A stretch of 38,784 nucleotides of DNA from Candidatus Nanohalarchaeota archaeon. GTDB lineage: Archaea; Nanohalarchaeota; Nanosalinia; Nanosalinales; JAFCCC01. Where the stretch lies: NCBI GenBank assembly GCA_017610385.1, contig JAFCCC010000008.1, forward strand, positions 1 to 38,784. The letters run 5' to 3'. Position numbers and translations under genes: made by a program. Shown here in pieces: positions 1 to 22,084 of the stretch. The notes beneath the pieces were generated by a model that ran no database searches, had not been told where the DNA came from, and saw only the letters and a list, made by a program, of their open reading frames with translations. How positions within the stretch are numbered: position 1 is the first letter of the stretch; every line of letters begins with the position of its first letter.

Positions 1-213
1 TCAATTGGATATACATTTTTTTACTCATTTCCAACCATTAAAATTGGAGAAACAGAAGAATATTCTCATAGATCTGTATGTATGATTTCTTCAACCCAAG
101 AGAATTGTGTGGAACTTAAGATGCCTTCAATAAATTTAATTAAATTACAACCAGGTCAACATTTCTTAAAAATAAAATATATCCATCCTGGTGTTATGGA
201 AGTGACAGAATGA
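1..213 (+). CDS. 5'-truncated hypothetical protein, probably an upstream member of the pilin-like cluster
   Basis: Frame 1 is open from base 1 (SIGYTFFYSFPTIKIG...GVMEVTE*) to TGA at 211-213, which overlaps the next ATG (ATGA coupling). Confidence 0.7.
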   Translation, partial: SIGYTFFYSFPTIKIGETEEYSHRSVCMISSTQENCVELKMPSINLIKLQPGQHFLKIKYIHPGVMEVTE

Positions 214-695
214 AGGGTGTTGCTGAAACACTTAATGTAATGATTATTATCATCATTATTGGAATATTTGCTACGATTTTGTTTTTAATAAGATTTAGGG
301 GGACTGGAGAAAATATTGTTACTTTCGGAGAAGCTTCTCAAGAATTTGAGTCTAAAACACTATTAAATTCATTGTATTCTATACATTATCCTATTGTGGG
401 CGCAGATAATGAAGAACTTATGTGGGTTCTAAGATTTGGTTGCGCATATGGAAATATAGAAACAGGAGAATTTATTGTTTCTCCAACAATACCAGTTATT
501 TTTGATCCGCAATTATTTATTGAAAATTATTTTGAGCAAAAAATCGGAGAAAATTATTTCTTGGAGATTGTTTGCGGAAATAGAACACTAGACTACGGCA
601 AAAAACCACCAAATAATAAGAAAATATTATCAAATAAGCTAATGTTTCCTATTCCTGGGAGAGGTTATGGTGAGTCGTATTTGAGGCGGTGGTAG
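210..695 (+). CDS. Pilin-like protein with class III signal peptide
   Basis: N-terminus MKG|VAETLNVMIIIIIIGIFATILFLI: KG cleavage site followed by a hydrophobic helix. Confidence 0.7.
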   Translation: MKGVAETLNVMIIIIIIGIFATILFLIRFRGTGENIVTFGEASQEFESKTLLNSLYSIHYPIVGADNEELMWVLRFGCAYGNIETGEFIVSPTIPVIFDPQLFIENYFEQKIGENYFLEIVCGNRTLDYGKKPPNNKKILSNKLMFPIPGRGYGESYLRRW

Positions 696-696
696 A

Positions 697-2004
697 ATGA
701 GAAACTCAAAGGGATTCAGTTTGATAACTCTTGTTTTTGTTGTTGTAGTTGTGGTAATAGGAGGAATTGCGTGGTATATGAATAATTCTATTTCGGGTCA
801 GGGAATTTCTAGAGAGATTTTGGAAAATTTTAAATTACAGAAAGTGGAATTGGAAAACGAAAACTCAATATTATACTTAGAACAGGCTCTGTGGGATTCT
901 ACTGCAAATGCGTCACAAACAGTTTCAGATCTGGCAGGAAGAAATGTGACAAATGAAACAGACACTAATTTAACATATTGGCGATGCGATTTGGATGAAG
1001 TAAGTAATTCTGGAAGAGAAGTTACATACCAAATACCATCAATTGAGCGTGTTCAATTATCTTTACAAAACAAAACTATGACCTATCTTGAAAATATATT
1101 GAATCAATTACATGGAATAAGAGATGGGGTAATTTATGATGTGGGGGGTGTAAAATGTGCAGAAGTAGGATATAATACCCCCTTAGACAGCCCTTTAAAT
1201 TCTAAATATAAAACAGCGGGTATTATTAACAAAATAGATACAACTTTTGAGAGTTACAAAAGAGAGCGTGCTAATCTAACTTTCAATGACGATATAAGAT
1301 ATAACCGCTTCTGGTATATGTATACGATTATGGCTCGTTGGACTCAGGAACAGGATATGGAATCAGACATTTTAAGTGAGATGGCCAAGGTTTATGATTG
1401 GGTTGATGACGTTGTATGCACACCTAGTTGCACATGCCCTTGTCCTTATCAACCACTTTGTACTAGAATACCAATTAATTGGAGCACGCTAGTTAGACAT
1501 GCAGTAGACAAGGGTATTGAAAAGGGTGTTAATGAATTAGAGTCTGGTTCTCGTTATTTTAATGATAATAAGATTTCTTGTGGTTATGGGATTGAAATAG
1601 ATTACTATGACAATATTCCTTATATTACAAATGCAAGAATCGGGCGTTGTGGAAGCTGGGGTCAATGGTGTCTTATGTACTGCAGATTAGATTATGAATA
1701 CAATTTTGAAGGAGATATTGATATTTCTTGCACAGATCAACAATATCAATCAATTCCAAGAAAAGATTTAGAAAGACTAAACTGGAAAATTCGTTTTAAT
1801 GTTGAAGCCACAGACCCGCCAAATGAGGGACCATTCCCACCACCATGCGATAGTTTATTGTCTGGTTCATGTAAAACCATTGAGTCTCCGGATAGACTAG
1901 GTACTGATAAATTCCCAGAATGTACTGTCACAGATCCCGAATTTAAACTTTGTGATACCGGTGTAGACACCATTGGTACTTTATGGGGTGAAAATAATGC
2001 GTAA
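697..2004 (+). CDS. Large minor-pilin-like protein with class III signal peptide and Cys-rich C-terminus
   Basis: MRNSKG|FSLITLVFVVVVVVIGG; many Cys in the C-terminal half; begins 1 nt after the previous stop. Confidence 0.7.
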   Translation: MRNSKGFSLITLVFVVVVVVIGGIAWYMNNSISGQGISREILENFKLQKVELENENSILYLEQALWDSTANASQTVSDLAGRNVTNETDTNLTYWRCDLDEVSNSGREVTYQIPSIERVQLSLQNKTMTYLENILNQLHGIRDGVIYDVGGVKCAEVGYNTPLDSPLNSKYKTAGIINKIDTTFESYKRERANLTFNDDIRYNRFWYMYTIMARWTQEQDMESDILSEMAKVYDWVDDVVCTPSCTCPCPYQPLCTRIPINWSTLVRHAVDKGIEKGVNELESGSRYFNDNKISCGYGIEIDYYDNIPYITNARIGRCGSWGQWCLMYCRLDYEYNFEGDIDISCTDQQYQSIPRKDLERLNWKIRFNVEATDPPNEGPFPPPCDSLLSGSCKTIESPDRLGTDKFPECTVTDPEFKLCDTGVDTIGTLWGENNA

Positions 2005-3571
2005 AGGAATAGCAATTCTTACTGAAATCATTTTATCTGTTGGAATTATTGCGGCAGGTGCTATTTTTTTCTTAGTGGGTTATGATTTTCTGGGACATGA
2101 AACCCAAACGGCATACAAATATACAGAATTACAATTTTTATTGGACATTGGAAATAGAATAGATACGTCATCTTCACAACTTGGAAGAACTACTGTAGAA
2201 TATCGTGTTCCTTTTGATGTTTATAGTTTAAAAGGAGAAAATAACATATTAACCTTACAAACTGCTGACAATCCCTCCCCAAGCCATACTTTATTAGAGT
2301 TCAATTTAAAAGATTTCAACATATCAGATCAAGATTATATTTGTCTTTACTTTAAAAATAAAACAGCGGTTGTTGAACCTGGAGAGTGCCCTAATTTAAA
2401 TGTTAGCGATGATTTCTGCGCAAATTTACGGTGTGTAGATGGAATTTGTACTTCAGATTACGGAGAAAACTGCTTAAGTCCAGATTGTAATTGTAGTGGA
2501 GGAATATGCCAACCACACTATAAAACAGAGTGTTTAGATTCTAAAGGGTGCGTTAAAGAAGAGTGTGTGGGTGTTTTAAACTATAGTAACACTTGTAAAT
2601 ATTCCTGGGAATGTGGAACTTTTGAAGATGATCAGATGAATTGTAAGCCTTCTAAAAATAACATATCAAATAAAGGATGTTGTCCGCCAGATGAAGTTTG
2701 GAATGGAACCCAATGTACGATTGGCTGTGTTGGAGATCCATGTGTAACGGGAGAAGAGTGTGGAACCGGTGAACAGTGTGGTACTTCTGATGATTTGGTT
2801 TGCAATCCGACAGACATTAATTTTACAGATTTTAATAAAGGTTGTTGTCCAGAAAATTTGCGTTGGAATGGAAGTACTTGTGTGGAAGCTTTGACTATTT
2901 GTAATGGTCCTCTTCCCGCAGCATTTGATTGGAGAGATAGATTAGGCAAAAATTGGTTACCACCAATTCGAGATCAAGGTCATTGTGGCTCTTGTTGGGC
3001 ATTTTCTGCTATTGGCACAATAGAAGGTGAATACCAGGTTGAATCATATAAACCAGATTCTGGAATTAATTTGGCAGAGCAAGAACTTGTTTCAAGTTGT
3101 TGTAGCTCTTGTGGTAGCTGTAGTGGGGGTTGGCCACACAAGGCGTTTAGTTATGTTAAAAGCAGTAATGTTGTAGATGAAACATGTTTTCCATACAGAG
3201 CAAGCAATATGGGATGTAATAAATGTGGTGATGCAAAAAATAAAGACTGGACCGTAAGTTCTTTCATTAGGGTAAGTGGTACACAGAATATTAAAAGAGC
3301 ATTAGCCTGTCGTGGGCCGTTATCTGTTGCATCAATGAATTGGGGGCATGCGATTGTTTTAGTTGCATATGATGATGATAGTGACATTTGTAGGGCACAC
3401 TATGGAAAAGATGGTTGTTGGGTTATAAGAAATAGTTGGGGTGTACGATCGGGAGTATTGCATGGAGGTGTGTGGCATGACAAAGGTTATGGTTATATTC
3501 CATATTCTGGTCATTCTAAGAGCGATATTGTGAATTATGTGTACTATGTAACAGATGTGAGAGAAGCATAA
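1997..3571 (+). CDS. Pilin-like protein fused to a Cys-rich stalk and a C-terminal papain-family (C1A) cysteine peptidase
   Basis: Likely start is ATG 1997 (MRKG|IAILTEIILSVG). LPAAFDWR, QGHCGSCWAF (Gln/Cys), GHAIVLVAY (His) and IRNSWG (Asn) are all intact. CCPxxxxWNGxxC repeats. Confidence 0.9.
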   Translation: MRKGIAILTEIILSVGIIAAGAIFFLVGYDFLGHETQTAYKYTELQFLLDIGNRIDTSSSQLGRTTVEYRVPFDVYSLKGENNILTLQTADNPSPSHTLLEFNLKDFNISDQDYICLYFKNKTAVVEPGECPNLNVSDDFCANLRCVDGICTSDYGENCLSPDCNCSGGICQPHYKTECLDSKGCVKEECVGVLNYSNTCKYSWECGTFEDDQMNCKPSKNNISNKGCCPPDEVWNGTQCTIGCVGDPCVTGEECGTGEQCGTSDDLVCNPTDINFTDFNKGCCPENLRWNGSTCVEALTICNGPLPAAFDWRDRLGKNWLPPIRDQGHCGSCWAFSAIGTIEGEYQVESYKPDSGINLAEQELVSSCCSSCGSCSGGWPHKAFSYVKSSNVVDETCFPYRASNMGCNKCGDAKNKDWTVSSFIRVSGTQNIKRALACRGPLSVASMNWGHAIVLVAYDDDSDICRAHYGKDGCWVIRNSWGVRSGVLHGGVWHDKGYGYIPYSGHSKSDIVNYVYYVTDVREA

Positions 3572-3599
3572 TAAAAAAGAAAATATAATAATAAAGAGA

Positions 3600-4535
3600 T
3601 TGATAATTATGAATAAAATTAGGATAATTTTGCTTGTGGGCGCATTTGTTGTTTTTAGCAGTACGGCGTTTGGATTAAATAATCCGTCACAAGTGTATTG
3701 TACTGCCATGAATTACTCATATGTTATTGAGAATATACCAGAAGGAGAAGTTGGATACTGTTATTTTAATAATGGTGATTTCTGTGATGCGTGGGATTTT
3801 TTGATTGGAACTTGTGGTATGGCACATAGTTACTGTTTAATACAAGGATATGATATTGAAACTACTACAAATATGGAGATTTGTAATTCGGAAAACGCAG
3901 AAGAACAATGCTGTGCATGTATTTTAACCAATGGAACAGCAGTGGAAGTAACAAAATTAATGGGTCTCAGCTTTGTCGAAGGAGACTGTGGGGATCTTGT
4001 TTGTGTTTTGGGGGAAACATTTGAAAACTGCCCTGTAGATTGTCCCTCAGGAGGATTAGACCTTTTTTGTGATGGTGTAAAAGACAACATATGTGATCCA
4101 GATTGTAATATTAGTGAAGATGAAGATTGCAAACCTGTTTGCGGAAATGAAAAATGTGAACAAGGAGAGACTAATAAAAACTGCCCTGTAGATTGCGCTT
4201 TAACCTCGGTGTGTGGAAATGGTGTGTGCGAATCTGATGAAAATATTACTAATTGTAATATAGATTGTGAGAAAGAAGTCAGTTGTGGAAATGGTATTTG
4301 CGATGAAAAAGAAAGTTATCAAATTTGCCCAGAAGATTGTAAATCCGGACACAAGGACTTTTTTTGTGATGCAGTAAACGATGGTCGCTGTGATCCGGAT
4401 TGCAAGAATGGAGAAGACGTAGACTGTCAAATAAAAAGAAATTCTCATTGGTGGGTATATTCGATAGTTATTCTATCAATTTTATTTAGTCTGATTTTAT
4501 TGGTTAGAAAAAGCAAGGTACGTAAAAATGCATAA
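3600..4535 (+). CDS. Secreted, membrane-anchored Cys-rich protein with N-terminal DUF333-like domain
   Basis: Sec signal peptide; NNPSQVYC...GYC...C.AWDF..G.CG resembles DUF333; repeated CG(N/D)xxCExxExxxxCPxDC and D(G/N)xCDPDC motifs; C-terminal TM helix and basic tail. Confidence 0.7.
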   Translation: MIIMNKIRIILLVGAFVVFSSTAFGLNNPSQVYCTAMNYSYVIENIPEGEVGYCYFNNGDFCDAWDFLIGTCGMAHSYCLIQGYDIETTTNMEICNSENAEEQCCACILTNGTAVEVTKLMGLSFVEGDCGDLVCVLGETFENCPVDCPSGGLDLFCDGVKDNICDPDCNISEDEDCKPVCGNEKCEQGETNKNCPVDCALTSVCGNGVCESDENITNCNIDCEKEVSCGNGICDEKESYQICPEDCKSGHKDFFCDAVNDGRCDPDCKNGEDVDCQIKRNSHWWVYSIVILSILFSLILLVRKSKVRKNA

Positions 4536-6594
4536 GAAAGGGATGGTGCAGGGATTTGTAATTGCGATGGCTGCATTTGTAATTGCTGCACTAACAATTT
4601 TTTTAGTATTTAGATATTTTTCAATGACAAGATATCCTTTAGATTCAGAACAAGTTGTGCAGGGATCTGACAAAGAAGTTGCATTTCAGTTAGCAAAATT
4701 AATTGACTATTGTTGGGAAGAAAATAATTATGGTGCAGGGAATTTAGAACAAGATTGTTTTTTAGTTACAATCAATAGTGAAAAAAATCTGAGTGCTACA
4801 TCAATTAAAAGTCAGATAAGTTATCCTCAAATAAAAATTAAATCTTTAAATTTTACTGGTGGTGAAAGCGTGAAAGCCAAAATAATTTACCATCCGGAAA
4901 ATGGAACTATTGAAATCAAAGGTTTTATGGAATTATTAAATGGTATTTGTCAACCACAATATGGAGAAGATTGCTATTTCCCAGACTGCAATTGTACAGA
5001 ATTAGGAATCAGTGATATTTGCCTGCCTTCTTATACTCCTAACAAAATAACCGCAGTAGGTTGCGTTAAACCAGACTATGTACATATCTTAAACCGTGGT
5101 TCTCAATGTAAATATAATTGGGAATGCGAAGAAGATTTAACCTGCGGGCAAACTGTTCGTTTTGATGACTTTGAATTTGCGTGTTGCCCAAATGGAACTG
5201 GGTGGAATGGAAATGAATGTATAAAATTAAAAGAAATTGGAGAAGAATGTGAAGAAACAGAAGAATGCGAAATAAATCTGAATTGCAATAATGTATCTCT
5301 AAATTTTACAGAGTATTCTAAGGTGTGTTGTGTTGGTCAAAAGCACTGGAATGGTTCTGCTTGTGTCTATGTGTATGGAGAAATATGTTTTGAGAACCAA
5401 GAATGTGATTTGGGCTTAAAGTGTAATTCAAATCCAGAAAAGACTGGAAAAAACTGTTGCCCGCCAGGAGAAAAATGGAATGGTTCTGCTTGCGAATTAA
5501 AAGAAGTTGATGTGCTGGTTGTTGCATTAAAAACCAATATGAAAAAAGTTTATTCTGATGCGGATATTGAAAACTTAGAAAATAAAGTTGACGAATATAT
5601 TTCAACAATTTCAACAACAGATGATCTTGTTGGCCTTTTTGTATATTTGGATGAAGATTTAGTAAAAAATATTATTGGCTCTAAAGTTACGAACCCAGGC
5701 GACTGGAATAATATCGATGGCATTTTAGATCAATTAATTCCCAAATTGAAAGCGAAATATTTGATTATTTTGGGGGGGTATAATCGATTTGTTCAGGCAC
5801 CAATTGGCTCTTCTCAGGGTTCAGATGACCCATATGGAGATACAGATCGAGACGGTTCATATTTACCAGATGTAAGTGTAGGAAGAATTCCAGACCCAAA
5901 TAATGGGGACCTGCAAGTACTTTTAAACGGTTTAAATACAGCTATAAGCGTACATAAAGATGGAGGTTTAACATTGGACAGTCATGTAGCACCAATAATG
6001 GGTTGCGGGGGATATGACAATAGAAATTGGAACTCTGGAAAATGTTTTTGTCAAGCCATTTGGCCATCAACTTGCGTAGCATGTGGATCCTGTTGTGGGT
6101 GCATAAATTCAGCGAGTATGTCTGGAAAAGGATTTGTAATGATTTTATCACATGGTCCAGGACCCTCTTCTACAGAACTATATAAAGGGGGGTGTTTGGA
6201 TGTCAGACCAAATTTTATTACTAGTTTAAACGTGGATACGGCGTTTTGGATTTCAATGAGTTGTGGTGGAGGTCATTTGAAATTAAAAAGTCAAACTTCA
6301 GGATCAATGGCTATGACTTTTTTAAAGAAGGGGGGTGCGATTTATGTGGGTAGCACGGATTTGAATTACGGGGGCCTAGGCGGTTGCAGTGTACCTGGCG
6401 GTGATTCTTGTATTGGTTCTCTTTACGTTGAATTTATTAAAAGATTACAAGTGGGTAAAAGTGTTGGGGCTGCCTATCGTGAAGGTAAAAACTATTATTA
6501 TGGTAGATATAACTGTGGTGCAGGCAAAAGTTACCAGACCCATATAAATTGTTTGTATGGGGATCCTACCCTAAAAATTAAAAGTATGTGGTAA
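4528..6594 (+). CDS. Pilin-like protein fused to a Cys-rich stalk and a C-terminal gingipain-like (C25) cysteine peptidase domain
   Basis: MHKKG|MVQGFVIAM signal; C25 hallmarks YLIILGG, DDPYG, VSVGRIP, SHG (His), SMSC (Cys), GAIYVGST and terminal LYGDPTLKI. Confidence 0.8.
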   Translation: MHKKGMVQGFVIAMAAFVIAALTIFLVFRYFSMTRYPLDSEQVVQGSDKEVAFQLAKLIDYCWEENNYGAGNLEQDCFLVTINSEKNLSATSIKSQISYPQIKIKSLNFTGGESVKAKIIYHPENGTIEIKGFMELLNGICQPQYGEDCYFPDCNCTELGISDICLPSYTPNKITAVGCVKPDYVHILNRGSQCKYNWECEEDLTCGQTVRFDDFEFACCPNGTGWNGNECIKLKEIGEECEETEECEINLNCNNVSLNFTEYSKVCCVGQKHWNGSACVYVYGEICFENQECDLGLKCNSNPEKTGKNCCPPGEKWNGSACELKEVDVLVVALKTNMKKVYSDADIENLENKVDEYISTISTTDDLVGLFVYLDEDLVKNIIGSKVTNPGDWNNIDGILDQLIPKLKAKYLIILGGYNRFVQAPIGSSQGSDDPYGDTDRDGSYLPDVSVGRIPDPNNGDLQVLLNGLNTAISVHKDGGLTLDSHVAPIMGCGGYDNRNWNSGKCFCQAIWPSTCVACGSCCGCINSASMSGKGFVMILSHGPGPSSTELYKGGCLDVRPNFITSLNVDTAFWISMSCGGGHLKLKSQTSGSMAMTFLKKGGAIYVGSTDLNYGGLGGCSVPGGDSCIGSLYVEFIKRLQVGKSVGAAYREGKNYYYGRYNCGAGKSYQTHINCLYGDPTLKIKSMW

Positions 6595-6599
6595 TAAAT

Positions 6600-7202
6600 A
6601 TGAAAAAATCTAAATTTAAATTGATGAGAAAGGGCAACGTTTGGATAATTGTAGGTCTCTCTTTACTGATAATTTTAGGAATAATAACTGCTTTGTTCGT
6701 TGTTTTGGGAGACCATAAACAAGAAACGAAGATACCTACAAAATCAATTTGTGGAGATTCTATTTGTGATGAATCAGAAGGTTGCTATAACTGCTCTATA
6801 GACTGTAAATGTGCAGAAGACGAATATTGTTCTCCTGAAAAAAACAAATGTATTTTGCCTGTTTGTGGAAACGGGATTTGCGAGTCATTTGAAGGTCCTG
6901 ATTCCTGTTGTCTAGATTGTCCATGTACAATTCCTGCAGAAATTTGCAATAATGAAAGTTTAATTTGTGAAATTCCTTGTGAAATTCCGAAATTTCCACT
7001 TTCTGATGAAAATGTAAAAGAAATTGCTATTAACTATTCAGAAAGCATAGGTTTCATTGTGGAAAACACGGAAATTGTAAACACTGGAGAATATAATGGA
7101 AACGTAGTTCGAATTATTCGGGTTTCTTATCAGGGAGAAGAATGGTTTACAACATATGGAATAACTGAGGAAGGGCAAGTTATCGAACTTCCTGTGGCGT
7201 AA
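6600..7202 (+). CDS. Membrane-anchored or pilin-like Cys-rich protein
   Basis: ...MRKG|NVWIIVGLSLLIILG; CGDSICD and CGNGICE repeats; small C-terminal domain. Start is ATG 6600 or 6624. Confidence 0.65.
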   Translation: MKKSKFKLMRKGNVWIIVGLSLLIILGIITALFVVLGDHKQETKIPTKSICGDSICDESEGCYNCSIDCKCAEDEYCSPEKNKCILPVCGNGICESFEGPDSCCLDCPCTIPAEICNNESLICEIPCEIPKFPLSDENVKEIAINYSESIGFIVENTEIVNTGEYNGNVVRIIRVSYQGEEWFTTYGITEEGQVIELPVA

Positions 7203-7235
7203 TTATCAGAATATTTATACTCTTAAAAATAAAAT

Positions 7236-7699
7236 ATGGATATGGCAAAGGGCTTGGCAGTACAATTAATTGCATCTATGATTTTGGCGTTTATTGGCTA
7301 CCACACCACGGTGGAGACGCACCAATACCAAGAGGTTGCGGAGACCCAGATAAACAAGCTCAAACTCCAGTAATTATTAAAGATCCGAATGATCTTGCAC
7401 TTCGATTAGGAGGGTATATTTTAGATTGTTGGGAAAAGTATGAAGGATATGGAGAGTCCAGAGAAGTATGTGATGGTTTAATTATTGATGAATTGGTGGG
7501 TTATGTGGATGAGAAATTAATTACACAAAAGCTTATTTCACAACAACTTTGTCCAGATAAAATTCAAAATTCTGAATTAGAAGAAAGTGATGGAACTGGT
7601 TGTGGTACACTAAATCAAATAATAATGCCAATAGAAAAAATACAAGATGGAGATTTTATTACTATTACTTTCTTTAATGAAACAATTGAGGTAAAATAA
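7236..7699 (+). pseudogene. Frameshifted pilin-like gene (N-terminus and body in different frames)
   Basis: ATG 7236 reads MDMAKG|LAVQLIASMILAFIG and stops soon after. The -1 frame from about 7298 reads LPHHGGDAPIPRGCG...LGGYILDCWEKY...CDG and runs into the track ORF 7493-7699, with no start codon of its own before TTG 7493. Confidence 0.7.
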
Positions 7700-7700
7700 A

Positions 7701-8135
7701 ATGAAAAGCAAAGGTTCAATGTCTTTAGAAATGATTGTTAAATGGATCATTATGTTGGTAGTAGTTTTGGTGGCCATTGGATTAATTACGGTTTTTAGTG
7801 GGAGAATTAAAGAGTCTGTTCAAAATTTATTTCATAAAAACAATGATCAATCAGTTTATGTTCGTGTAGGTCTTATTGGTACAGATCAACAATTAAGCAA
7901 AATCGCGGAATTAATAGATCTTTGTTACAATGCAAAATTAGGTCAAAGCAGGGATGAAACATGCTATATTGTCCATAACAAAAATGGCGATTTTTCAATC
8001 ACGAAAGAACAAATAAAAGAACGCCTACCAGGCGGCTTGGCAGATAAAATGATATTTAAAGATGACGAATTTGATTCAGAAACTATTGTAATTTCTTATG
8101 GGTGGGTAGATGAAACAGTTGTATTGGAACAATAA
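7701..8135 (+). CDS. Pilin-like protein
   Basis: MKSKG|SMSLEMIVKWIIMLVVV with Glu at +5; IAELIDLCY...ETCY resembles the N-terminal domain of 4528. Confidence 0.8.
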   Translation: MKSKGSMSLEMIVKWIIMLVVVLVAIGLITVFSGRIKESVQNLFHKNNDQSVYVRVGLIGTDQQLSKIAELIDLCYNAKLGQSRDETCYIVHNKNGDFSITKEQIKERLPGGLADKMIFKDDEFDSETIVISYGWVDETVVLEQ

Positions 8136-8622
8136 AGGATCTATTTCTATAGAATTGATTGGCAAATGGGTTCTAGGAATTATTATTATTGCAGTTGGAA
8201 TTGGACTAATTTATGCCCTATTGAAACCAACTAATACGGATTCCATTCATAAACAAATTGCAGAAATGGTTCGTGGCAGCGAAATTCCTATTTGTCGCGC
8301 ATATGATAACTTAGAAAAGATAAACGAGATTGATTTTCAAGCCCTGTGTTTTGCGCGAGCTACAGATAAATGCAATAGTTCGGAGAATAATATAACCTTG
8401 GATTTTGTTTTAAGCAAGGATTTTTTTGAAAAGTTTCTTGTAGATTTTAATTTTGTTTCTGGAAAAGAACCATTAGTATTCTACAAAGATGCTTGTGAAA
8501 GTTTTACTGGTTATGATGGATTTATTGTACAATCTGAAAAAAATAAGATATTATTTCTAAAAGGCGAAAAAATTAAAATAGCTAATTTAAATCCTGGGGT
8601 AGGAATCTGTCCGTTACAATAA
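8110..8622 (+). CDS. Pilin-like protein
   Basis: NNKG|SISIELIGKWVLGIIII with Glu at +5. Confidence 0.8.
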   Translation: MKQLYWNNKGSISIELIGKWVLGIIIIAVGIGLIYALLKPTNTDSIHKQIAEMVRGSEIPICRAYDNLEKINEIDFQALCFARATDKCNSSENNITLDFVLSKDFFEKFLVDFNFVSGKEPLVFYKDACESFTGYDGFIVQSEKNKILFLKGEKIKIANLNPGVGICPLQ

Positions 8623-8654
8623 ATGTATTTATTCTAGTAAAATAAAGTTTTTTT

Positions 8655-9170
8655 ATGCAAAAAGGCATGAGTGTGGCCATGTGGATCTGGATTATCGGGG
8701 GTGTTTTAATCGCGGGTCTGTTGTTTGTAATGGTTGTAAATAATATGGGGTTTTTTACTTCCCAGAAATCCAGAGAAGCCATGTTAGATCAATTCAGGTT
8801 GAATATTGTAAATAAAGCTGACTTGATTTGTGCCTCGAGTATAGGAAGTGTAAATCCCTCTTCGGTTGAACTCAAAAATGTTCAGGCAATATATGCTGCA
8901 GAAAAACCTAGAAATGTTGATCCAAAAGCACCACTATACATAACACAAAAAAATTATTCTATTGGTAAATATCTGTGCATGTCTTTTGATAATGAAGAGT
9001 ATCGCTGTAAAGAAATGACTTGTGAGATAAATATGACGTACATTGGAACCCCATTAAAAACTTCTGATATGTATAAAATAGGAATAAGTGATGGTTCATT
9101 TGAATTTGATCTGAGTATTCAAAAAAATGAACATAGTAAGGTATTAATTTCTGCGACACATCGTCCATAA
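8655..9170 (+). CDS. Pilin-like protein
   Basis: MQKG|MSVAMWIWIIGGVLIAGLLF. Confidence 0.75.
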   Translation: MQKGMSVAMWIWIIGGVLIAGLLFVMVVNNMGFFTSQKSREAMLDQFRLNIVNKADLICASSIGSVNPSSVELKNVQAIYAAEKPRNVDPKAPLYITQKNYSIGKYLCMSFDNEEYRCKEMTCEINMTYIGTPLKTSDMYKIGISDGSFEFDLSIQKNEHSKVLISATHRP

Positions 9171-9208: not shown

Positions 9209-9598
9209 ATGGCCGCACCTCAAAAACCAGAATTTGAAATAGACGTAATGGAACGTTTGAATAGCGCGTCTAGAAGAATTAGACAGCTTGAAGAAAATAT
9301 TAGAAGTATAAGAGATCATTTAACCGGTCTAGAAAATGAATTCGTCAAACAGAAGGAAGATAGGAATTCTTTTAATACGAATTTTAATAAAAAAGAGGAA
9401 CAAATTAAAATAGCCATAACTAATTTAGGTGTAGAAGTTAAGAATATCAATAGACGATTAAGAAAAGTTGCAACTAATCGAGAACTTCAAGAGATTGAAA
9501 GTTACATTCAAATTTTTAATCCATTAAAGAGCAGCTTTGTAACAAAAAAAGAGGTTCAAAAAATGATAGAAAAATATCGTGGAGGAGATCTTGAGTGA
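9209..9598 (+). CDS. Coiled-coil hypothetical protein
   Basis: Heptad-rich; C-terminal YIQIFNPLKSSFVTKKEV motif; TATA-like TTATATAA at 9178-9185. Confidence 0.75.
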   Translation: MAAPQKPEFEIDVMERLNSASRRIRQLEENIRSIRDHLTGLENEFVKQKEDRNSFNTNFNKKEEQIKIAITNLGVEVKNINRRLRKVATNRELQEIESYIQIFNPLKSSFVTKKEVQKMIEKYRGGDLE

Positions 9599-10386
9599 AA
9601 TTTAAGTTATTTGGTAGATTAAAACAAAATGCAAAAAAAGAACCTAAAATAGAAGCGAATTTAAAACCTGCTGAAGAAATACCAGTTAATGAAGTTAGAC
9701 GAATGAGTTCTCAGGGAGTTTCTCAAGGAGAGATTGTTAATCAATTAAGAAATACTGGGTATACTTATTCTCAAATAAATAAGGCGATGAATGAAGCAGT
9801 TAAAGAAACAACAAAAATGGGTGGAATTCAAAATCAAACGCCTATGCAAAGTCAGATGTCCTCAGGTATGCCACAACCGGAAATAAATACTCAATTACCG
9901 CCAAAGGCAACACCACAGGTTCAAAATAACCAATCGAATGAGCGGTCATTTGAATACCCGCAAAATATACAATATACTGGACCCTCTAAAGAAGAACTTG
10001 GATTACAAAGCCAGGATGCATTTGCTGCCGCAGCATCACAACAGCAACAATTTTTGGTTCCTGAAAATACAGAAGAATTAATAGAGGTTATGATTGCTGA
10101 AAAGATGATTGATGTTGAAGATGAATTTGAAAGATCGCATAATAAAATTTCTGATCTTGAGAAAATTATTCTAGAGTTAAGAGACACAGTAAAAGAACTT
10201 CAGATTAGAAAAGATGAGGATGAAAAAAAGTTCTTGGGAAAGGTTATTGAAATTGAAGATTTTTTAGAAGGATCTCAAAGTAGACTTGGTGGATTAGAAA
10301 AAGCTGTTCAACAAGTTTTGCCTACTTTAGTTGAAAATGTTCGTGATTTAACAGGAGTAGTTGAGGATGCAAAGAAAAAAGAGTAA
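9595..10386 (+). CDS. Hypothetical protein: small helical N-domain, Gln/Pro-rich linker, C-terminal coiled coil
   Basis: GTG start overlaps the upstream stop (GTGA) with a GGAGG SD upstream; domain layout read from composition. Confidence 0.75.
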   Translation: MKFKLFGRLKQNAKKEPKIEANLKPAEEIPVNEVRRMSSQGVSQGEIVNQLRNTGYTYSQINKAMNEAVKETTKMGGIQNQTPMQSQMSSGMPQPEINTQLPPKATPQVQNNQSNERSFEYPQNIQYTGPSKEELGLQSQDAFAAAASQQQQFLVPENTEELIEVMIAEKMIDVEDEFERSHNKISDLEKIILELRDTVKELQIRKDEDEKKFLGKVIEIEDFLEGSQSRLGGLEKAVQQVLPTLVENVRDLTGVVEDAKKKE

Positions 10387-17311: not shown

Positions 17312-20263
17312 ATGAAAAAATTACTTGCAGTTTTATTTGCATTGATTGCTTTCATAGGTGTTGCTAGTGCGGGAATCGTTGGCTCCTATTCTCTAAAAGT
17401 TAATGTGTATGATTATTCAACTTCTCAGAGCATTATTGCAGATTCTATTTGTGTTGATAGTAATTGTGTTTACAATAAACAAAGCTATACGTTTAATGTA
17501 AACAAAGGCGATCACAATATTTTTGTTATAGAAAATAATTACAACAGTTACAGTTCTTCACTATATATCCAATCTAATTCGTTTAAGAATGTTTATTTAC
17601 AAAGCGGTTCAGGTGGTATAACTCCTGTTGAGGGATATAGTTTAACAATTAAAATTTATGATTATGATACTAGACAGCCGATTTCTGTTGATGATATCTG
17701 TGTAGATGCGAAATGTGTTCAAAATAAGCAAATATATAGTTTTAGTGTAAGCAAAGGCACACGAATGATTGCGGTTGGAGATGAAGACTATCAAAGTTAT
17801 AGTAGTTCCATATATATTCAATCTAATTCGTTTAAGAATGTTTATCTAAAACGAAATAGTTGCCCACTTCCGCCAGCCCCGGTTTGTGGAAATGGAATTT
17901 GTGAATCAGGGGAGACACAATATAATTGTCCTCAAGATTGCGGCACACCCCAAAACGAATGTCGTGATTCTGATGGAGGTTTAGACTATTACAAAAAAGG
18001 AACCGTGATAATTAGTTCGGGTAGTTGTGGCTCTTGTGAAAATAGTTATACGGATTATTGCACTAGTTCTGTTGTTTTGAAAGAGTATTATTGTTCTGGA
18101 AATAGTATGAGTTCTACAAGTTACACTTGCTCGTATGGTTGTGAGGCGGGTGCATGTAAATTACACATTGAGCCGTCTTGTGATCCACAATATTTAGATA
18201 ATTATCAATGTAGTAGAAATTGGGTACAAAGAGAATATCAGAATACAGATTGTTCTACTGTATGGAAGAATTGGGAACTTTGTGAGCATGGTTGTGAGAA
18301 TGGTGTGTGCAAATCTGAGCCACGTTGTAATGTAGACGTCTATGATTTAACTCTAAGCGATTCTGAAGTTACTGTAGGAGAAAACGTGGTTGTAAGAGCC
18401 ACTATTAAGAATACTGGTGAAAGTACTGAAAAAATCAGAGTAAGAATGTATTATAGAACGGAACGTGAAGATGTTCAGGAGTATACTCTATCACCCGATC
18501 AATCTAGAGAAATTTCTTTTGAATTAAATAACATAGTATATGCAGGCTATGTTAAAGTTGAGGCAGAGTCTTGCAATAATGTCAAAAATGCTGTAACTAA
18601 AAGAATTAGAATTGAACAGGAATCTATTGCTACTGGAGATTTAAAAATTACTGTTATGAAGGGGGTAGGTTGTGGTACAGATTGCTCTTGCGGTTCATGT
18701 GCTTCTTGTAGTTATTCTTGTGGAACTTGTGATCGAGAGTTGCAAGGTGCAAAAGTATTAATTGAACGAGAAAGTGGTGGTTATACTACCTACAAATATA
18801 CTAATTCAGCTGGAGAAGCAAGATTTTATAATCTTCCAGAAGGAACTTATGAAATTACAGTAAGCAAAAGTGGATATAATAGTATAAGAACTAATGCAGA
18901 CGTTGAAGAAAATGAAATAACATCTAAAACAATTTCATTGGCCTGCTGTGGTGATGGAACATGTTCTTTCCATGATTTAGAACTTAGAAGAATTATTTTA
19001 CCTCAAGAGATTCATGCAGGAGATTCAATTTATATTGAGAGTAGAGTGAAAAATCTTGGTGGCTGTACTGAGAAGAACATAAAAGTAAGTGTGACTGCAT
19101 TTGGACAAACTAAAACTTCGGATGTTTTTTCATTAGGGAAAAATAATGAAAAAAGTGTTTTATTACAATTTAATATTCCTTCAAATTATTATGGCCATTA
19201 TGCAGTAATATCTCGGGTTTGGAATTCAAATGATGAAGATGTTTTGGAAACAGATGCGTTTGTTTCAGAAGTTCGTGCTATTTTAAAATTAGATCCTTCG
19301 ACGGTTCATGTTAATGAATCGGTTCATGTTTATGGATACATTAAAGGAAAGAGCTCAGCTAAATTATATTTGGGAAATAGATACATTAGAAAAATTTATA
19401 CAGATAGTAGGGGATATTATTCAACATATATAACACCAAAAGTTCCTGGCAAACTCTCTGTAAGTTTAAAAGATAGTTCGTTTACAGTAAGCAAATATCT
19501 GACGGTTATTGCCGATTTATGGATTAAAAATATTGAATTAAAGGAGATGGTTGCTGTTGGAGAAAGCTTTAGTGTTTGTTCGGTTATTGAAACTACAAAA
19601 ACAGGTTATGTAACAGTAGGCTTGTATGTGGATGGAATTAAATACACACAAACAAGACCCTATATTATAGGTTCTAAAAATGTTTGTATAACTACAAAAA
19701 TTTTGGAAAAAGGGCATAAAGAAATTCAAATTGTTGCAGCTCAAGATGATAAAAGAGATGAAATTAGTGGTAAAATAGAAGTCATTAAACCAAACACAGA
19801 AGTTTTGGTTGTACCAAAGAATCTAATGATTGAACAGGGGAAAGATGGTTTATTAAAAATTGTTGTAACAAACTCGGACCCAATTGAAAAAGAATATGTT
19901 GTTTCAATTAATTACATGGATCAAGTAAGTATAGACATTCCTGTTGATTCAGCAAGATTAACTCAGTACGAATCTAAAACATTTTATGTAAATTTAAATC
20001 CACATAAAAAAGGAGAATTTAACAGTATTGTAACTGTTAAAGCAGATGACGTAATTTTAAAAGAAATTCCAATTAAGTTATATACTTCACAACAGTATCT
20101 TTCTTGGAATGAGAAAGTCAGTATGTTTTTTCAAAGAGCGGGGATACGTGCTGGTTTGGTAACTGGAATAATTACATTGGCATTGATTGTTATTGTAATT
20201 ATTATTTCCATATTGTATGTAGGATTTTTTAGGGTAAAACCAATGGAACCACATTACAAATAG
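17312..20263 (+). CDS. Large cell-surface protein (duplicated PEGA-like domains, Cys-rich repeats, CARDB/Ig-like domains, C-terminal TM anchor)
   Basis: Signal peptide; two near-identical N-terminal units ending YIQSNSFKNVYL; CGNGICESGETQYNCPQDC; C.DSDGG.DYY.KG; ATIKNTG and GTYEITVSKSGY; TM near C-terminus. Confidence 0.85.
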   Translation: MKKLLAVLFALIAFIGVASAGIVGSYSLKVNVYDYSTSQSIIADSICVDSNCVYNKQSYTFNVNKGDHNIFVIENNYNSYSSSLYIQSNSFKNVYLQSGSGGITPVEGYSLTIKIYDYDTRQPISVDDICVDAKCVQNKQIYSFSVSKGTRMIAVGDEDYQSYSSSIYIQSNSFKNVYLKRNSCPLPPAPVCGNGICESGETQYNCPQDCGTPQNECRDSDGGLDYYKKGTVIISSGSCGSCENSYTDYCTSSVVLKEYYCSGNSMSSTSYTCSYGCEAGACKLHIEPSCDPQYLDNYQCSRNWVQREYQNTDCSTVWKNWELCEHGCENGVCKSEPRCNVDVYDLTLSDSEVTVGENVVVRATIKNTGESTEKIRVRMYYRTEREDVQEYTLSPDQSREISFELNNIVYAGYVKVEAESCNNVKNAVTKRIRIEQESIATGDLKITVMKGVGCGTDCSCGSCASCSYSCGTCDRELQGAKVLIERESGGYTTYKYTNSAGEARFYNLPEGTYEITVSKSGYNSIRTNADVEENEITSKTISLACCGDGTCSFHDLELRRIILPQEIHAGDSIYIESRVKNLGGCTEKNIKVSVTAFGQTKTSDVFSLGKNNEKSVLLQFNIPSNYYGHYAVISRVWNSNDEDVLETDAFVSEVRAILKLDPSTVHVNESVHVYGYIKGKSSAKLYLGNRYIRKIYTDSRGYYSTYITPKVPGKLSVSLKDSSFTVSKYLTVIADLWIKNIELKEMVAVGESFSVCSVIETTKTGYVTVGLYVDGIKYTQTRPYIIGSKNVCITTKILEKGHKEIQIVAAQDDKRDEISGKIEVIKPNTEVLVVPKNLMIEQGKDGLLKIVVTNSDPIEKEYVVSINYMDQVSIDIPVDSARLTQYESKTFYVNLNPHKKGEFNSIVTVKADDVILKEIPIKLYTSQQYLSWNEKVSMFFQRAGIRAGLVTGIITLALIVIVIIISILYVGFFRVKPMEPHYK

Positions 20264-20335
20264 TTTACATAGTATTACTTAATAGTGGGAAAAATGCATA
20301 GTTATATAAATTTTATCACTTATTAGGTACTATAA

Positions 20336-22084
20336 ATGATTAAAATGAAATTCAGATTATTAACTTTGTTCATATTTGGTATATTACTAATTAGCATAGT
20401 TGGTGCTAGCAAGGCCCAATTAGATTTGTTTCCAGATAAATCATCTGCATGTCCAACTCATACAGCATATTTTGAATTAAGTGTACAGAACATAGGTCCT
20501 GTACAAGACACATATCAAGTTACTTCTTCACAACCAGATATTATTACTATTGCACCAGATATGATTACATTAAACGCTGGTGAAATTTATAAGGATCCTC
20601 ATGTTTGGTATACTCCCAAAACAACTACTGAGCCAGGAAATTATGATTTTACATTGTATGTCACTTCAATGGCGACTGGTGAAAGATACAGCATTGATGG
20701 TTCAATTGAAGTTTTAGCATGTCATGATGTAGATATTACTCCAGTGTCCTCTGTTATGGTCGGTTGCATTGCAGAAAAATCTACATTAGATTTAATAATT
20801 TCTAATTCTGGACGAGATACTGAAGATTTTGTTTTAGATACCAATTATGGAAAATTAAGTCAATCTGAAGTTTCTCTGCAGCCAGGAACATCTGAAACAA
20901 TAACATTAACCGCACAAGGAACAAAAATCGGAAGCAGAGATATTCGAGTTACAGCACAATCAACTACATCTTATGCATATGAAACAAAGGTTATTGCATT
21001 ACAAACTGAAAAATGTTATGACTCAGCAATAATTGTCGCTCCAGAAAGAAATGAAATTTGTGCTGGAACAGAAGGATCATTTTCAGTTGTTGTGAGAAAT
21101 CTAGGAACAAAAAGTGATACTTTTATTTTAAGTTCAACTGGTGGCAGACTACAAACAGATTCACTAATTGTAGCACCAGGCGAAAGTAAGGAAACTCAAT
21201 TATACTTTACTCCAGATGAATTAAAGACTTATGAAATTACAATAAATGCGATTGGCAAAACAGAAAGCGAAGATGTTGTTACTGCGGTAGGTGCAAATTG
21301 TAAAAACGTTGCGGTTCTGTTAACGCCATCTGAACGGTCTATTTGCGAAACAGATAAAACAGATTACACAGTAATGGTTCAAAATACAGGTAAAGTTGCA
21401 GATACTTATGTATTAGTAAGCAACATTGGAACATTAGGAAAGACAAGTGTTTCTTTAAATCCTGGAGAAGACGAAACCGTAGACTTACAAGTTGATGGAA
21501 GAAAATTAGGAAGTGGAACACACATTATAAAAGTAAGAGCAAAATCTATGTTTATTAGCACTGTTAGAGATTACTCTGAAGTAAAATTGACTGTGGAAAA
21601 CTGCTATGACTTGAACATGAATGTAAATCCTACTGAAGCGCAGATTGATGCGGGAGATGGATTGCTGTTTGAAGTTACTTTACAAAACACAGGGAGTATG
21701 GAAAATACATATCACTTGAATCTTCAGGGTCCGGCATGGGCCTCATTAAAACCAAGTGATGCGACATTGGCTCCAGGAAAAAGTAAAGTGGCATATGTTT
21801 ATGTTGCAGCACCGTTTGAAATTGCGGGAAACTTTGATATAAAAATTATGGCAGAAGATCAAAGTGGAACCATTCAAAAGGTTAAAACAGTTACAGTTTC
21901 AATCGGAGAAATGAATCTTCCGGAGCAAATTCCATCTGTGAAGCCATTCTTTGAAACAGTTAGAATGTGGTGGAATACGATTGTTAACGCATTCGCCAGC
22001 ATTGGTCTGGTGTGGGGAATTGTGATTTCAATTGGTGCAGGATTGATCATTGTTAGTGCAATTATTTGGAAAGAAGTTCGATAA
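20336..22084 (+). CDS. Cell-surface protein with five tandem Ig-like (CARDB/NEW3-type) domains and C-terminal TM anchor
   Basis: Repeated (V/I/L)xNxGxxx(D/E/N) ... (L/V)x(A/P)G(E/T/K) units; signal peptide; terminal hydrophobic helix. Confidence 0.8.
   Translation: MIKMKFRLLTLFIFGILLISIVGASKAQLDLFPDKSSACPTHTAYFELSVQNIGPVQDTYQVTSSQPDIITIAPDMITLNAGEIYKDPHVWYTPKTTTEPGNYDFTLYVTSMATGERYSIDGSIEVLACHDVDITPVSSVMVGCIAEKSTLDLIISNSGRDTEDFVLDTNYGKLSQSEVSLQPGTSETITLTAQGTKIGSRDIRVTAQSTTSYAYETKVIALQTEKCYDSAIIVAPERNEICAGTEGSFSVVVRNLGTKSDTFILSSTGGRLQTDSLIVAPGESKETQLYFTPDELKTYEITINAIGKTESEDVVTAVGANCKNVAVLLTPSERSICETDKTDYTVMVQNTGKVADTYVLVSNIGTLGKTSVSLNPGEDETVDLQVDGRKLGSGTHIIKVRAKSMFISTVRDYSEVKLTVENCYDLNMNVNPTEAQIDAGDGLLFEVTLQNTGSMENTYHLNLQGPAWASLKPSDATLAPGKSKVAYVYVAAPFEIAGNFDIKIMAEDQSGTIQKVKTVTVSIGEMNLPEQIPSVKPFFETVRMWWNTIVNAFASIGLVWGIVISIGAGLIIVSAIIWKEVR

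Follow-up and report, generated by a model that had tools for sequence, protein, structure and literature searches.

How do two neighbouring archaeal genes come to encode cysteine proteases of unrelated families behind one and the same type of cysteine-rich segment, and where would such enzymes act? This question is raised by a gene cluster at the start of contig JAFCCC010000008.1 of the Candidatus Nanohalarchaeota archaeon assembly GCA_017610385.1. We analyzed positions 1 to 38,784 of this contig, a stretch of 38,784 nucleotides referred to in the following as the window, with a focus on two genes on the forward strand, ORF A (positions 1997–3571, 524 amino acids) and ORF B (4528–6594, 688 amino acids). 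An earlier note on this DNA had described both products as "armed pilins," in which a class III signal, a pilin-like domain and a homologous stalk precede an enzyme; all of these parts were found in both proteins at the positions at which it had placed them. We conclude with moderate confidence that ORF A and ORF B encode modular pilin-like carriers of the class III signal type, belonging to a minor-pilin-like set, which present their proteases, by way of a disulfide-rich stalk, at the tip of a filament or in a short pseudopilus.

ORF A probably starts at the ATG at 1997 and not at the TTG at 1973, because the relatives of the protein begin with M-K-G. The leader, MRKG (residues 1–4), is followed by a stretch in which 24 of 26 residues are hydrophobic or small. 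An AlphaFold2 model of residues 1–305 (17 sequences, pLDDT 82.1) has a long helix at residues 3–60 and seven strands between residues 65 and 128, a predicted layout like the lollipop of a type IV pilin. Leader and helix occupy positions 1997–2176 and the β-strand head (residues 61–135) positions 2177–2401. Glu10 is invariant in 17 relatives that share this head and the stalk, referred to here as the A-type head family. The stalk follows at residues 140–300 (2414–2896), and a papain-type C1 protease domain completes the protein at residues 306–517 (2912–3547).

The assignment of the C1 domain, which the earlier note had made with an intact Q/C/H/N set, was borne out by Pfam: PF00112 matched residues 306–517 with an E-value of 3.5e-32 (112.7 bits against a cut-off of 20.7). 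The tip also matched 165 papain-family sequences in the PDB at E ≤ 1e-3, the best at 1.7e-21, and Q327 (2975–2977), C333 (2993–2995), H451 (3347–3349) and N479 (3431–3433) stand in the usual C1 catalytic motifs. The I29 propeptide gave no Pfam match on ORF A at E ≤ 0.1, and the PDB alignments begin at the mature C1 domain (residues 297–306), right after the stalk.

ORF B has the same plan with different ends. Its leader, MHKKG, and the hydrophobic stretch behind it belong to a pilin-like head of a second type (residues 1–133; 4528–4926), which has a conserved CW...G...DC motif and is homologous to stand-alone proteins of 135–140 residues. The stalk (residues 134–325; 4927–5502) leads to a gingipain-like C25 catalytic domain (residues 330–688; 5515–6591), which PF01364 matched with an E-value of 1.4e-11 (44.7 bits against a cut-off of 23), so that both enzymes exceed their Pfam cut-offs. 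Sequence and profile searches of the PDB returned no match for the C25 domain. Its AlphaFold model (34 sequences, pLDDT 97.1, pTM 0.95) resembled the gingipains Kgp and RgpB of Porphyromonas gingivalis, which made up the five best Foldseek matches (E-values from 2.6e-12 to 1.2e-9, TMq 0.59–0.64) and ranked well ahead of Craspase, separase and caspases, at a sequence identity of only 11–15%. The His-Gly pair H542-G543 (from position 6151) and C579 (6262–6264), which include the putative counterparts of the gingipain dyad, are invariant in 34 homologues. The predicted fold and these residues agree with what the earlier note had read from the sequence.

The two stalks are 34% identical over 157 residues, with an E-value of 8e-23 in composition-adjusted BLASTP, and the three pairs of stalk motifs quoted in the earlier note were present letter for letter. 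Each stalk holds 24 cysteines. The recurring unit CCx(3-7)W[ND]GxxC occurs twice in ORF A (2678–2716 and 2843–2881) and three times in ORF B (5182–5220, 5326–5364 and 5455–5493), all five copies having the WNG form. In an alignment of 17 head-plus-stalk proteins, 13 of the 16 invariant columns were cysteine, and a profile–profile comparison of the two head-plus-stalk families gave a probability of 99.9% and an E-value of 2.8e-35 over 396 columns. When 1.84 billion representative proteins were searched exhaustively with ORF B residues 1–331, the stalk module was present in 21 of the 41 matches. The BLASTP score and the recurrence of the module show that the similarity is homology and not chance cysteine-richness. 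In the ORF A model, a poorly modelled segment (mean pLDDT of 51–68 over residues 131–170) leads into a stalk that is modelled with confidence, pLDDT exceeding 90 between about residues 190 and 290.

Potential N-glycosylation sites are concentrated in the same part of the proteins. ORF A has nine N-X-S/T sequons in residues 1–300 and ORF B nine in residues 1–325, with none in either tip; nine or more were reached in 0.4% (ORF A) and 0% (ORF B) of 2000 shuffles. Many of the WNG[ST]xC stalk motifs are themselves sequons. An STT3/AglB oligosaccharyltransferase is encoded on contig C13 of the same genome, and the stalk is probably N-glycosylated.

If the stalk is a constant module, what it carries should differ among relatives, and the earlier note had proposed that the tips can be swapped. 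The tips of the 21 stalk-bearing matches do vary: 12 are zinc proteases with an HExxH motif, two are C1, one is C25, one is a subtilase (S8; P0003) and one is transglutaminase-like, the remainder being three with repeats only and one fragment. The transglutaminase-like match is below threshold, as are most of the Reprolysin-type Pfam matches. One stalk type is thus joined to C1, C25, S8 and HExxH zinc proteases and to a sub-threshold transglutaminase-like domain. P0003 is 60% identical to ORF A over head and stalk but ends in a subtilase. Searches for loci related to P0003 returned only an S8 relative in an Actinomycetota record among genome contigs and one S8 relative among metagenome contigs. 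A word-based homologue search was insensitive for head and stalk, with three matches for a single-protein query and five for an alignment.

A maximum-likelihood tree of the head-plus-stalk region retained all 17 rows, with P0043, L010 and P0036 on long branches. The C1 protein of the window was sister to the S8-tipped P0003 (support 99/97), and the zinc protease P0015 came next (95/91); the other C1 protein, P0012, fell outside the clade of these three. Tip type, as judged from these sequences, does not follow the head-plus-stalk tree. The break between carrier and tip lies right after the last stalk cysteine, at the same point in ORF A, P0003 and P0004. The last of these, a protein of 303 residues with a C1 tip, begins inside the stalk, and its residues 5–87 are identical to residues 216–298 of P0003 (83 residues, 100% identity), with unrelated flanks. 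Both proteins are recorded on a contig of 6137 bases, and the identity may stem from gene conversion in the recent past, from displacement of a tip cassette or from an artefact of assembly. The modularity of the proteins, with tips swapped in evolution at the end of the stalk, is well supported by these comparisons; in the slot concerned, relatives have zinc proteases of a metzincin-like kind or an S8 subtilase.

Within the order, the head-plus-stalk profile matched 13 of 69 other genomes (10 of 69 with a single-protein query; many of the genomes are incomplete). PF00112 was matched in one of 70 genomes, namely that of the window, and PF01364 in four of 70, the other three in open frames of 1175–1915 residues. 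A homologue of ORF A in genome G055 (L012 / L041, G055:C7:793102-794088) is broken by three TAG codons and may be a pseudogene, or TAG may be read differently there.

The C25 tip was also found on carriers of another kind. It has 58 other relatives, most of the named ones from Aenigmatarchaeota. Counted by a rough rule, a single hydrophobic segment occurs early in the sequence in 43 of the 58, and two occur there in seven. Five of the six two-segment relatives that we scanned matched T4SS_pilin (PF18895), two of them above the cut-off of 26.6 bits (P0080 with 27.6 and P0084 with 35.9). In P0080, P0084, P0045, P0076 and P0090, a C25 tip 40–67% identical to that of ORF B stands behind a Sec signal and a T4SS_pilin/TrbC-like domain; three of the five contain PKD repeats, and NCBI gives one of them the name "pilin." This enzyme is therefore found on a second, unrelated class of pilin as well, and it looks as if one protease had been placed convergently on two.

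We then considered the setting of the two genes. A class III signal consists of a short charged leader that ends in Gly, Ala or Ser and is followed by about 20 hydrophobic residues. The leaders of ORF A and ORF B fit this layout, taken in its commonly stated form, as do seven neighbouring ORFs: between 210 and 9170, nine ORFs on the same strand start with a few charged residues and K/R-G, after which comes a long hydrophobic stretch. Neither these seven ORFs nor the gene that separates ORF A from ORF B figured in the earlier note. Several genes in the region overlap by a few bases (697–2004 with 1997–3571, 3600–4535 with 4528–6594, and 4528–6594 with 6588–7202). On balance, the region 210–9170 is best read as one conserved operon, made up of about nine genes that are type IV pilin-like and of the class III signal type.

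The conservation is seen in G039, the complete genome of a relative. At its homologous locus, 11 K/R-G ORFs stand in a row between genes for an ABC transporter and a tRNA synthetase, and seven ORFs of the window match them in order. The slot of ORF A there holds an HExxH zinc protease, and that of ORF B a 300-residue protein with a head plus module and no enzyme. Between them lies an additional K-G protein of 836 residues (L057:8219-10729, minus strand) with a VWA domain (PF00092, E-value 5.2e-14), which has no counterpart in the window. In a further genome, G012, both slots hold zinc proteases.

Upstream of ORF A, the window has a 161-residue pilin-like ORF (210–695, forward strand as for all genes of the cluster), the first cluster gene in the window, with an MKG leader and a hydrophobic stretch. 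Its collinear homologue in G039 is 28% identical over 165 residues (E-value 2.8e-21). It is followed by a large pilin-like ORF of 435 residues (697–2004), with the leader MRNSKG and a hydrophobic stretch; its last 8 nucleotides, with the stop, are shared with the start of ORF A, and homologues stand immediately upstream of the armed pilin in G039 (E-value 3.5e-47) and in other loci. Three small ORFs at 7701–8135, 8110–8622 and 8655–9170, each with a K-G leader and a hydrophobic stretch, are collinear in G039 with E-values of 3.6e-22, 2.2e-14 and 3.6e-50. Directly 3′ of the cluster, at 9209–10386, are two coiled-coil proteins of 129 and 263 residues, which gave only weak, sub-threshold matches to coiled-coil families and no collinear match in G039 at E ≤ 1e-3.

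Heads of the B type form a graded series: stand-alone proteins of 135–140 residues, proteins of 170–230 residues with the head and the first cysteine module, and proteins in which the head and full stalk carry a zinc protease, CARDB or C25. The stand-alone P0007 is 56% identical to the ORF B head over 136 residues. The layout of a modular pilin is thus present, with a head, a stalk and then C1 or C25, and with heads that also occur on their own. Machinery that could process and assemble such proteins is encoded in the same genome, which has a single Peptidase_A24 prepilin peptidase (PF01478, 38.6 bits, contig C8), six matches to the T2SSE ATPase (PF00437) and seven to the T2SSF platform protein (PF00482). 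Paired ATPase–platform loci lie on contigs C3, C6 and C8, none of them adjoining the cluster. The pilin-like nature of the carriers is supported by the leader, the modelled helix and head, the stand-alone homologues, the membership of the cluster and these machinery genes.

A papain-type enzyme that lacks its usual propeptide would need another form of control, and a candidate is encoded by the gene between ORF A and ORF B (3600–4535, forward strand, 311 residues; ORF B begins 8 nucleotides before its end). This partner protein has a Sec-type signal, a DUF333 domain (3672–3803; Pfam E-value 2.8e-13), four cysteine-rich CG.G.C...CP.DC repeats and a C-terminal membrane anchor. When the partner was predicted in complex with the stalk and C1 domain of ORF A, the score was 0.88, a mark reached by 51 of 78 solved complexes and by two of 108 mismatched pairs; the best of three controls scored 0.00. 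The runs agreed in at least 46% of contacts, with a partner pLDDT of at least 62. The predicted interface covers the C1 cleft (residues 323–334, 449–452 and 480–484, including Q327, C333 and H451) and, on the partner side, residues 22–32 and 45–52 of the DUF333 domain; residue 26 of the partner is in contact with both C333 and H451, and residue 28 with Q327. Sequence and profile searches of the PDB returned no solved structure similar to the partner, so the score is unlikely to come from a similar structure already known to the model. The DUF333 partner is accordingly predicted by the model to occupy the C1 active-site cleft.

Genes of this general kind recur beside the armed pilins. In nine aligned relatives, the armed pilin is followed by a gene with a Sec signal, a cysteine module and a C-terminal anchor, and in G012, one follows each of two armed pilins. 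The ORF at 6588–7202, whose first bases lie within the end of ORF B, encodes 204 residues with an RKG leader, an N-terminus that is hydrophobic and two cysteine-rich CG.G.C modules like those of the C1 partner; its product could be the matching partner of the C25 tip. A strict coupling of DUF333 to C1 was ruled out by two genomes of the order that have DUF333 and no PF00112 match, the DUF333 frames being small ORFs of 133–141 residues (L068, G057:C1:64823-64948, and L069, G014:C4:5003-5110). The literature on DUF333, covered as titles and the openings of abstracts, gave it no function and contained nothing on proteases; PMC10318531 was set aside, the match there being to DUF3335.

From these elements, the following mechanism may be proposed. 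The armed pilins would be exported by Sec, and the single A24 prepilin peptidase would trim the leader, the N-terminal helix keeping the protein in the membrane. Along with the operon's other pilin-like proteins, it could then be built into a pilus tip or a short pseudopilus by one of the three ATPase–platform machines encoded elsewhere in the genome. A rigid stalk would hold the enzyme clear of the cell's own surface, where it may cut external or host-surface proteins in adhesion, entry or amino-acid scavenging. For the propeptide-less C1 tip, the membrane-anchored DUF333 protein would plug the cleft, acting as a safety catch for as long as the pilin remains in the membrane.

Several observations weigh against this proposal. 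No Pfam or NCBIfam pilin model reached its cut-off on any of the nine ORFs: N_methyl matched 697–2004 weakly (E-value 0.067), Flp1_like gave a match among the small ORFs at 7701–9170 with an E-value of 0.0019 (18 bits), both under cut-off, and NCBIfam returned no family for any ORF of the cluster. This weighs lightly, since pilins diverge beyond the reach of curated family models. Foldseek found no match, and no solved pilin, for the head-plus-stalk model at E ≤ 1e-3; an exhaustive VIA-align search with the same model returned only long-helix matches (Z ≤ 5.6), among which archaellins tied with coiled coils; and the B-type head profile matched nothing among PDB sequences. Genes for an assembly ATPase or a platform protein are absent from the window, which starts with the first base of its contig, and from the flanks of the G039 cluster. 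Only a position at the filament tip or in a pseudopilus is plausible, because a cargo of 25–40 kDa has no room inside a filament body. In many C25-tip homologues, the hydrophobic segment at the N-terminus comes with no clear K/R-G motif. In P0025, P0028 and P0034, the N-terminal signals ahead of stalk and protease look ordinary and lack K-G, so that the stalk is not confined to pilins. The safety catch, for its part, is drawn from one complex prediction made without alignments, partner residues 22–25 may belong to the signal peptide, and the two DUF333 genomes in which no PF00112 match was found, mentioned above, count on the same side.

Some of these points would fit with surface proteases that are tethered to the membrane and never polymerize. 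The helix would then be a plain signal anchor, or the proteins might undergo the processing of the class III signal sugar-binding proteins of Sulfolobus, which form the bindosome, and sit at or within the S-layer, with the stalk only as a spacer through the envelope. A 2010 review reports class III signals on archaeal substrate-binding proteins and on proteases, neither of them known as filament subunits (PMC2910488). The distance of the ATPase and platform genes from the cluster, the failure to match known pilins and the occurrence of stalk and protease behind other N-termini would all be expected of such proteins, and a partner anchored in the membrane fits an enzyme that stays there. Against a simple tether stand the homology of the heads to stand-alone, pilin-sized proteins of 135–140 residues, the conserved, collinear set of 9–11 K/R-G genes, which is like a set of minor pilins, the VWA-bearing member of the G039 cluster and the invariant Glu10 near the start of the helix. 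Tethering without polymerization is the main rival reading and the less likely of the two, though the data are compatible with both.

It is very improbable that the enzymes are freely secreted, with a Sec signal that is cleaved off and a head and stalk that act as a pro-region or as a domain for folding or stability and are later removed. A C1 domain that follows the stalk without an I29 propeptide does need some other control, and some stalk-bearing relatives have Sec-like N-termini. Against this, the leader is just 4–5 residues long, ends in K-G and stands directly before about 24 hydrophobic or small residues; the predicted helix runs for 58 residues into the head; the stand-alone homologues of the head have the same N-terminus; and head and stalk are enriched in sequons, as expected of a lasting extracellular part. 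Finally, cysteine-rich, low-complexity sequence can inflate scores, and a protein-atlas look-up of the stalk gave a weak lead only (0.75, Dicty_CTDC), but the idea that the stalks are a chance compositional likeness of unrelated linkers on two unrelated neighbours is ruled out for practical purposes by the composition-adjusted BLASTP score, the invariant cysteine columns, the profile–profile score and the recurrence of the module.

The preferred reading, of proteases carried by pilin-like proteins, has precedents in print. In bacteria, modular type IV pilins number more than 1,200 proteins in 264 architectures, and IPR030392 is the only peptidase module named in the text covered (PMC8179133). 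In Streptococcus sanguinis, the added module is VWA in PilB and a lectin in PilC (Raynaud et al. 2021, PMC8179133). That survey began from the bacterial motif IPR012902, and archaea go unmentioned in the part of it considered here. As in the proteins described above, an N-terminal pilin module bears a grafted functional module, the modules vary on one type of carrier, and presentation at the tip has been proposed; a VWA module is common to PilB and the G039 cluster. Unlike the bacterial proteins, the archaeal carriers match no pilin family and have a long disulfide-rich stalk between carrier and cargo, and their cargoes are true endopeptidases, with four catalytic types exchanged at one slot.

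Closer in lineage, the FlaFind review of 2010 lists proteases among predicted archaeal class III signal proteins, along with the sugar-binding proteins of the Sulfolobus bindosome (PMC2910488). Like ORF A and ORF B, these are enzymes or binding proteins of the cell exterior in which a short, charged leader precedes a hydrophobic stretch. In the text covered, they are single proteins of model archaea, known from predictions only, and, unlike here, they show no common stalk, pilin-sized head, exchangeable tips or conserved operon of several pilins. A 2016 census of archaeal type IV pili found transglutaminase-type surface peptidases adjoining pilus loci, with no fusion noted in the parts covered (PMC4858521), and a genomic study of Aenigmarchaeota, likewise seen in part, mentions extracellular peptidases and pili separately (PMC8407114). 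The suggestion of the earlier note that no such system had been described goes too far: the literature searches, which covered main texts, found no description of a pilin–stalk–protease fusion, tip exchange or DUF333 protease blocker, but the modular pilins of bacteria and archaeal proteases with class III signals are both in print. Since these are already known, the pilin–stalk–protease fusion is a variant of the modular pilin idea, with enzyme tips and in archaea, and not a new category. New here is the DUF333 gene after ORF A, whose product is predicted to lie in the C1 cleft.

Comparison with other protease systems brings out what is particular to this one. Gingipains carry a prodomain at the N-terminus and a type IX secretion signal at the C-terminus. 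In ORF B, the tip of which has them as its best structural matches, a pilin-like head and stalk come first instead, and the catalytic domain forms the C-terminal end. Proteases paired with an inhibitor gene are known from staphopain and staphostatin, in which the inhibitor is cytoplasmic and lipocalin-like. ORF A resembles this pair and the C1A zymogens in having a complete C1 domain and a neighbouring gene whose product is predicted to block the cleft; unlike the zymogens, it lacks an I29 propeptide, and unlike staphostatin, the putative inhibitor would be an exported, C-terminally membrane-anchored DUF333 protein. The T4SS_pilin (PF18895, TrbC/VirB2-like) proteins of uncultured archaea carry close homologues of the C25 tip, with 40–42% identity at full coverage, but they are of an unrelated pilin class, with a Sec signal, and have PKD spacers in place of the cysteine-rich stalk. 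Polymorphic toxin loci such as CDI and Rhs combine a constant carrier, variable C-terminal tips, a protective gene downstream and displaced "orphan" cassettes. By analogy, P0004, whose C1 tip starts within the stalk and shares 83 identical residues with P0003, resembles such an orphan; unlike the toxins, the tips here are proteases on pilin-like carriers, and delivery into other cells is not indicated.

There is a more far-reaching version of the proposal, which we consider unlikely: the operon would be a pilus or pseudopilus with exchangeable enzyme tips, each with its own safety catch, swapped as cassettes and used on the surface layer of a host. The conserved stalk would serve as a handle for recombination, and a tip cassette would be exchanged together with a matched gene for a membrane-anchored inhibitor downstream. 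Metzincin, C1, S8 and C25 would be the cassettes seen so far, displaced tips without promoters might remain, of which P0004 could be one, and host-dependent archaea would use the tips to cut the surface layer of the host. On VirB2-like pilins, this principle would have evolved once more.

The remainder of the window gives some indication of the organism. The window is archaeal, encoding proteins of the eRF1/Pelota and ribosomal P1 types and TYW2, has a G+C content of 28–36% and lies on contig C2 of its genome (788 kb, estimated to be 93.5% complete). The source is a small-genome DPANN archaeon, and the closest tip homologues carry the name Aenigmatarchaeota. Apart from the cluster, two large proteins of 983 and 582 residues with CarboxypepD_reg, CARDB, PEGA and Ig-like domains are encoded at 17312–22084; these are probably cell-surface or S-layer-type proteins.

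To our knowledge, how DPANN archaea touch and tap their hosts is largely unknown. Members such as the Aenigmatarchaeota lack amino-acid synthesis and are thought to depend on a host, according to the parts of a genomic study covered here (PMC8407114). A conserved pilin-like set with a slot for interchangeable proteases is a concrete candidate for an apparatus of host contact and feeding. It carries the concept of modular pilins beyond bacterial adhesins to enzymes of archaea, and it supplies a compact, defined spacer module that is rich in disulfides and sequons. The complex prediction offers a first functional lead for DUF333, as a putative blocker of cysteine proteases, and suggests that a papain-type enzyme may be silenced in trans instead of by a propeptide of its own.

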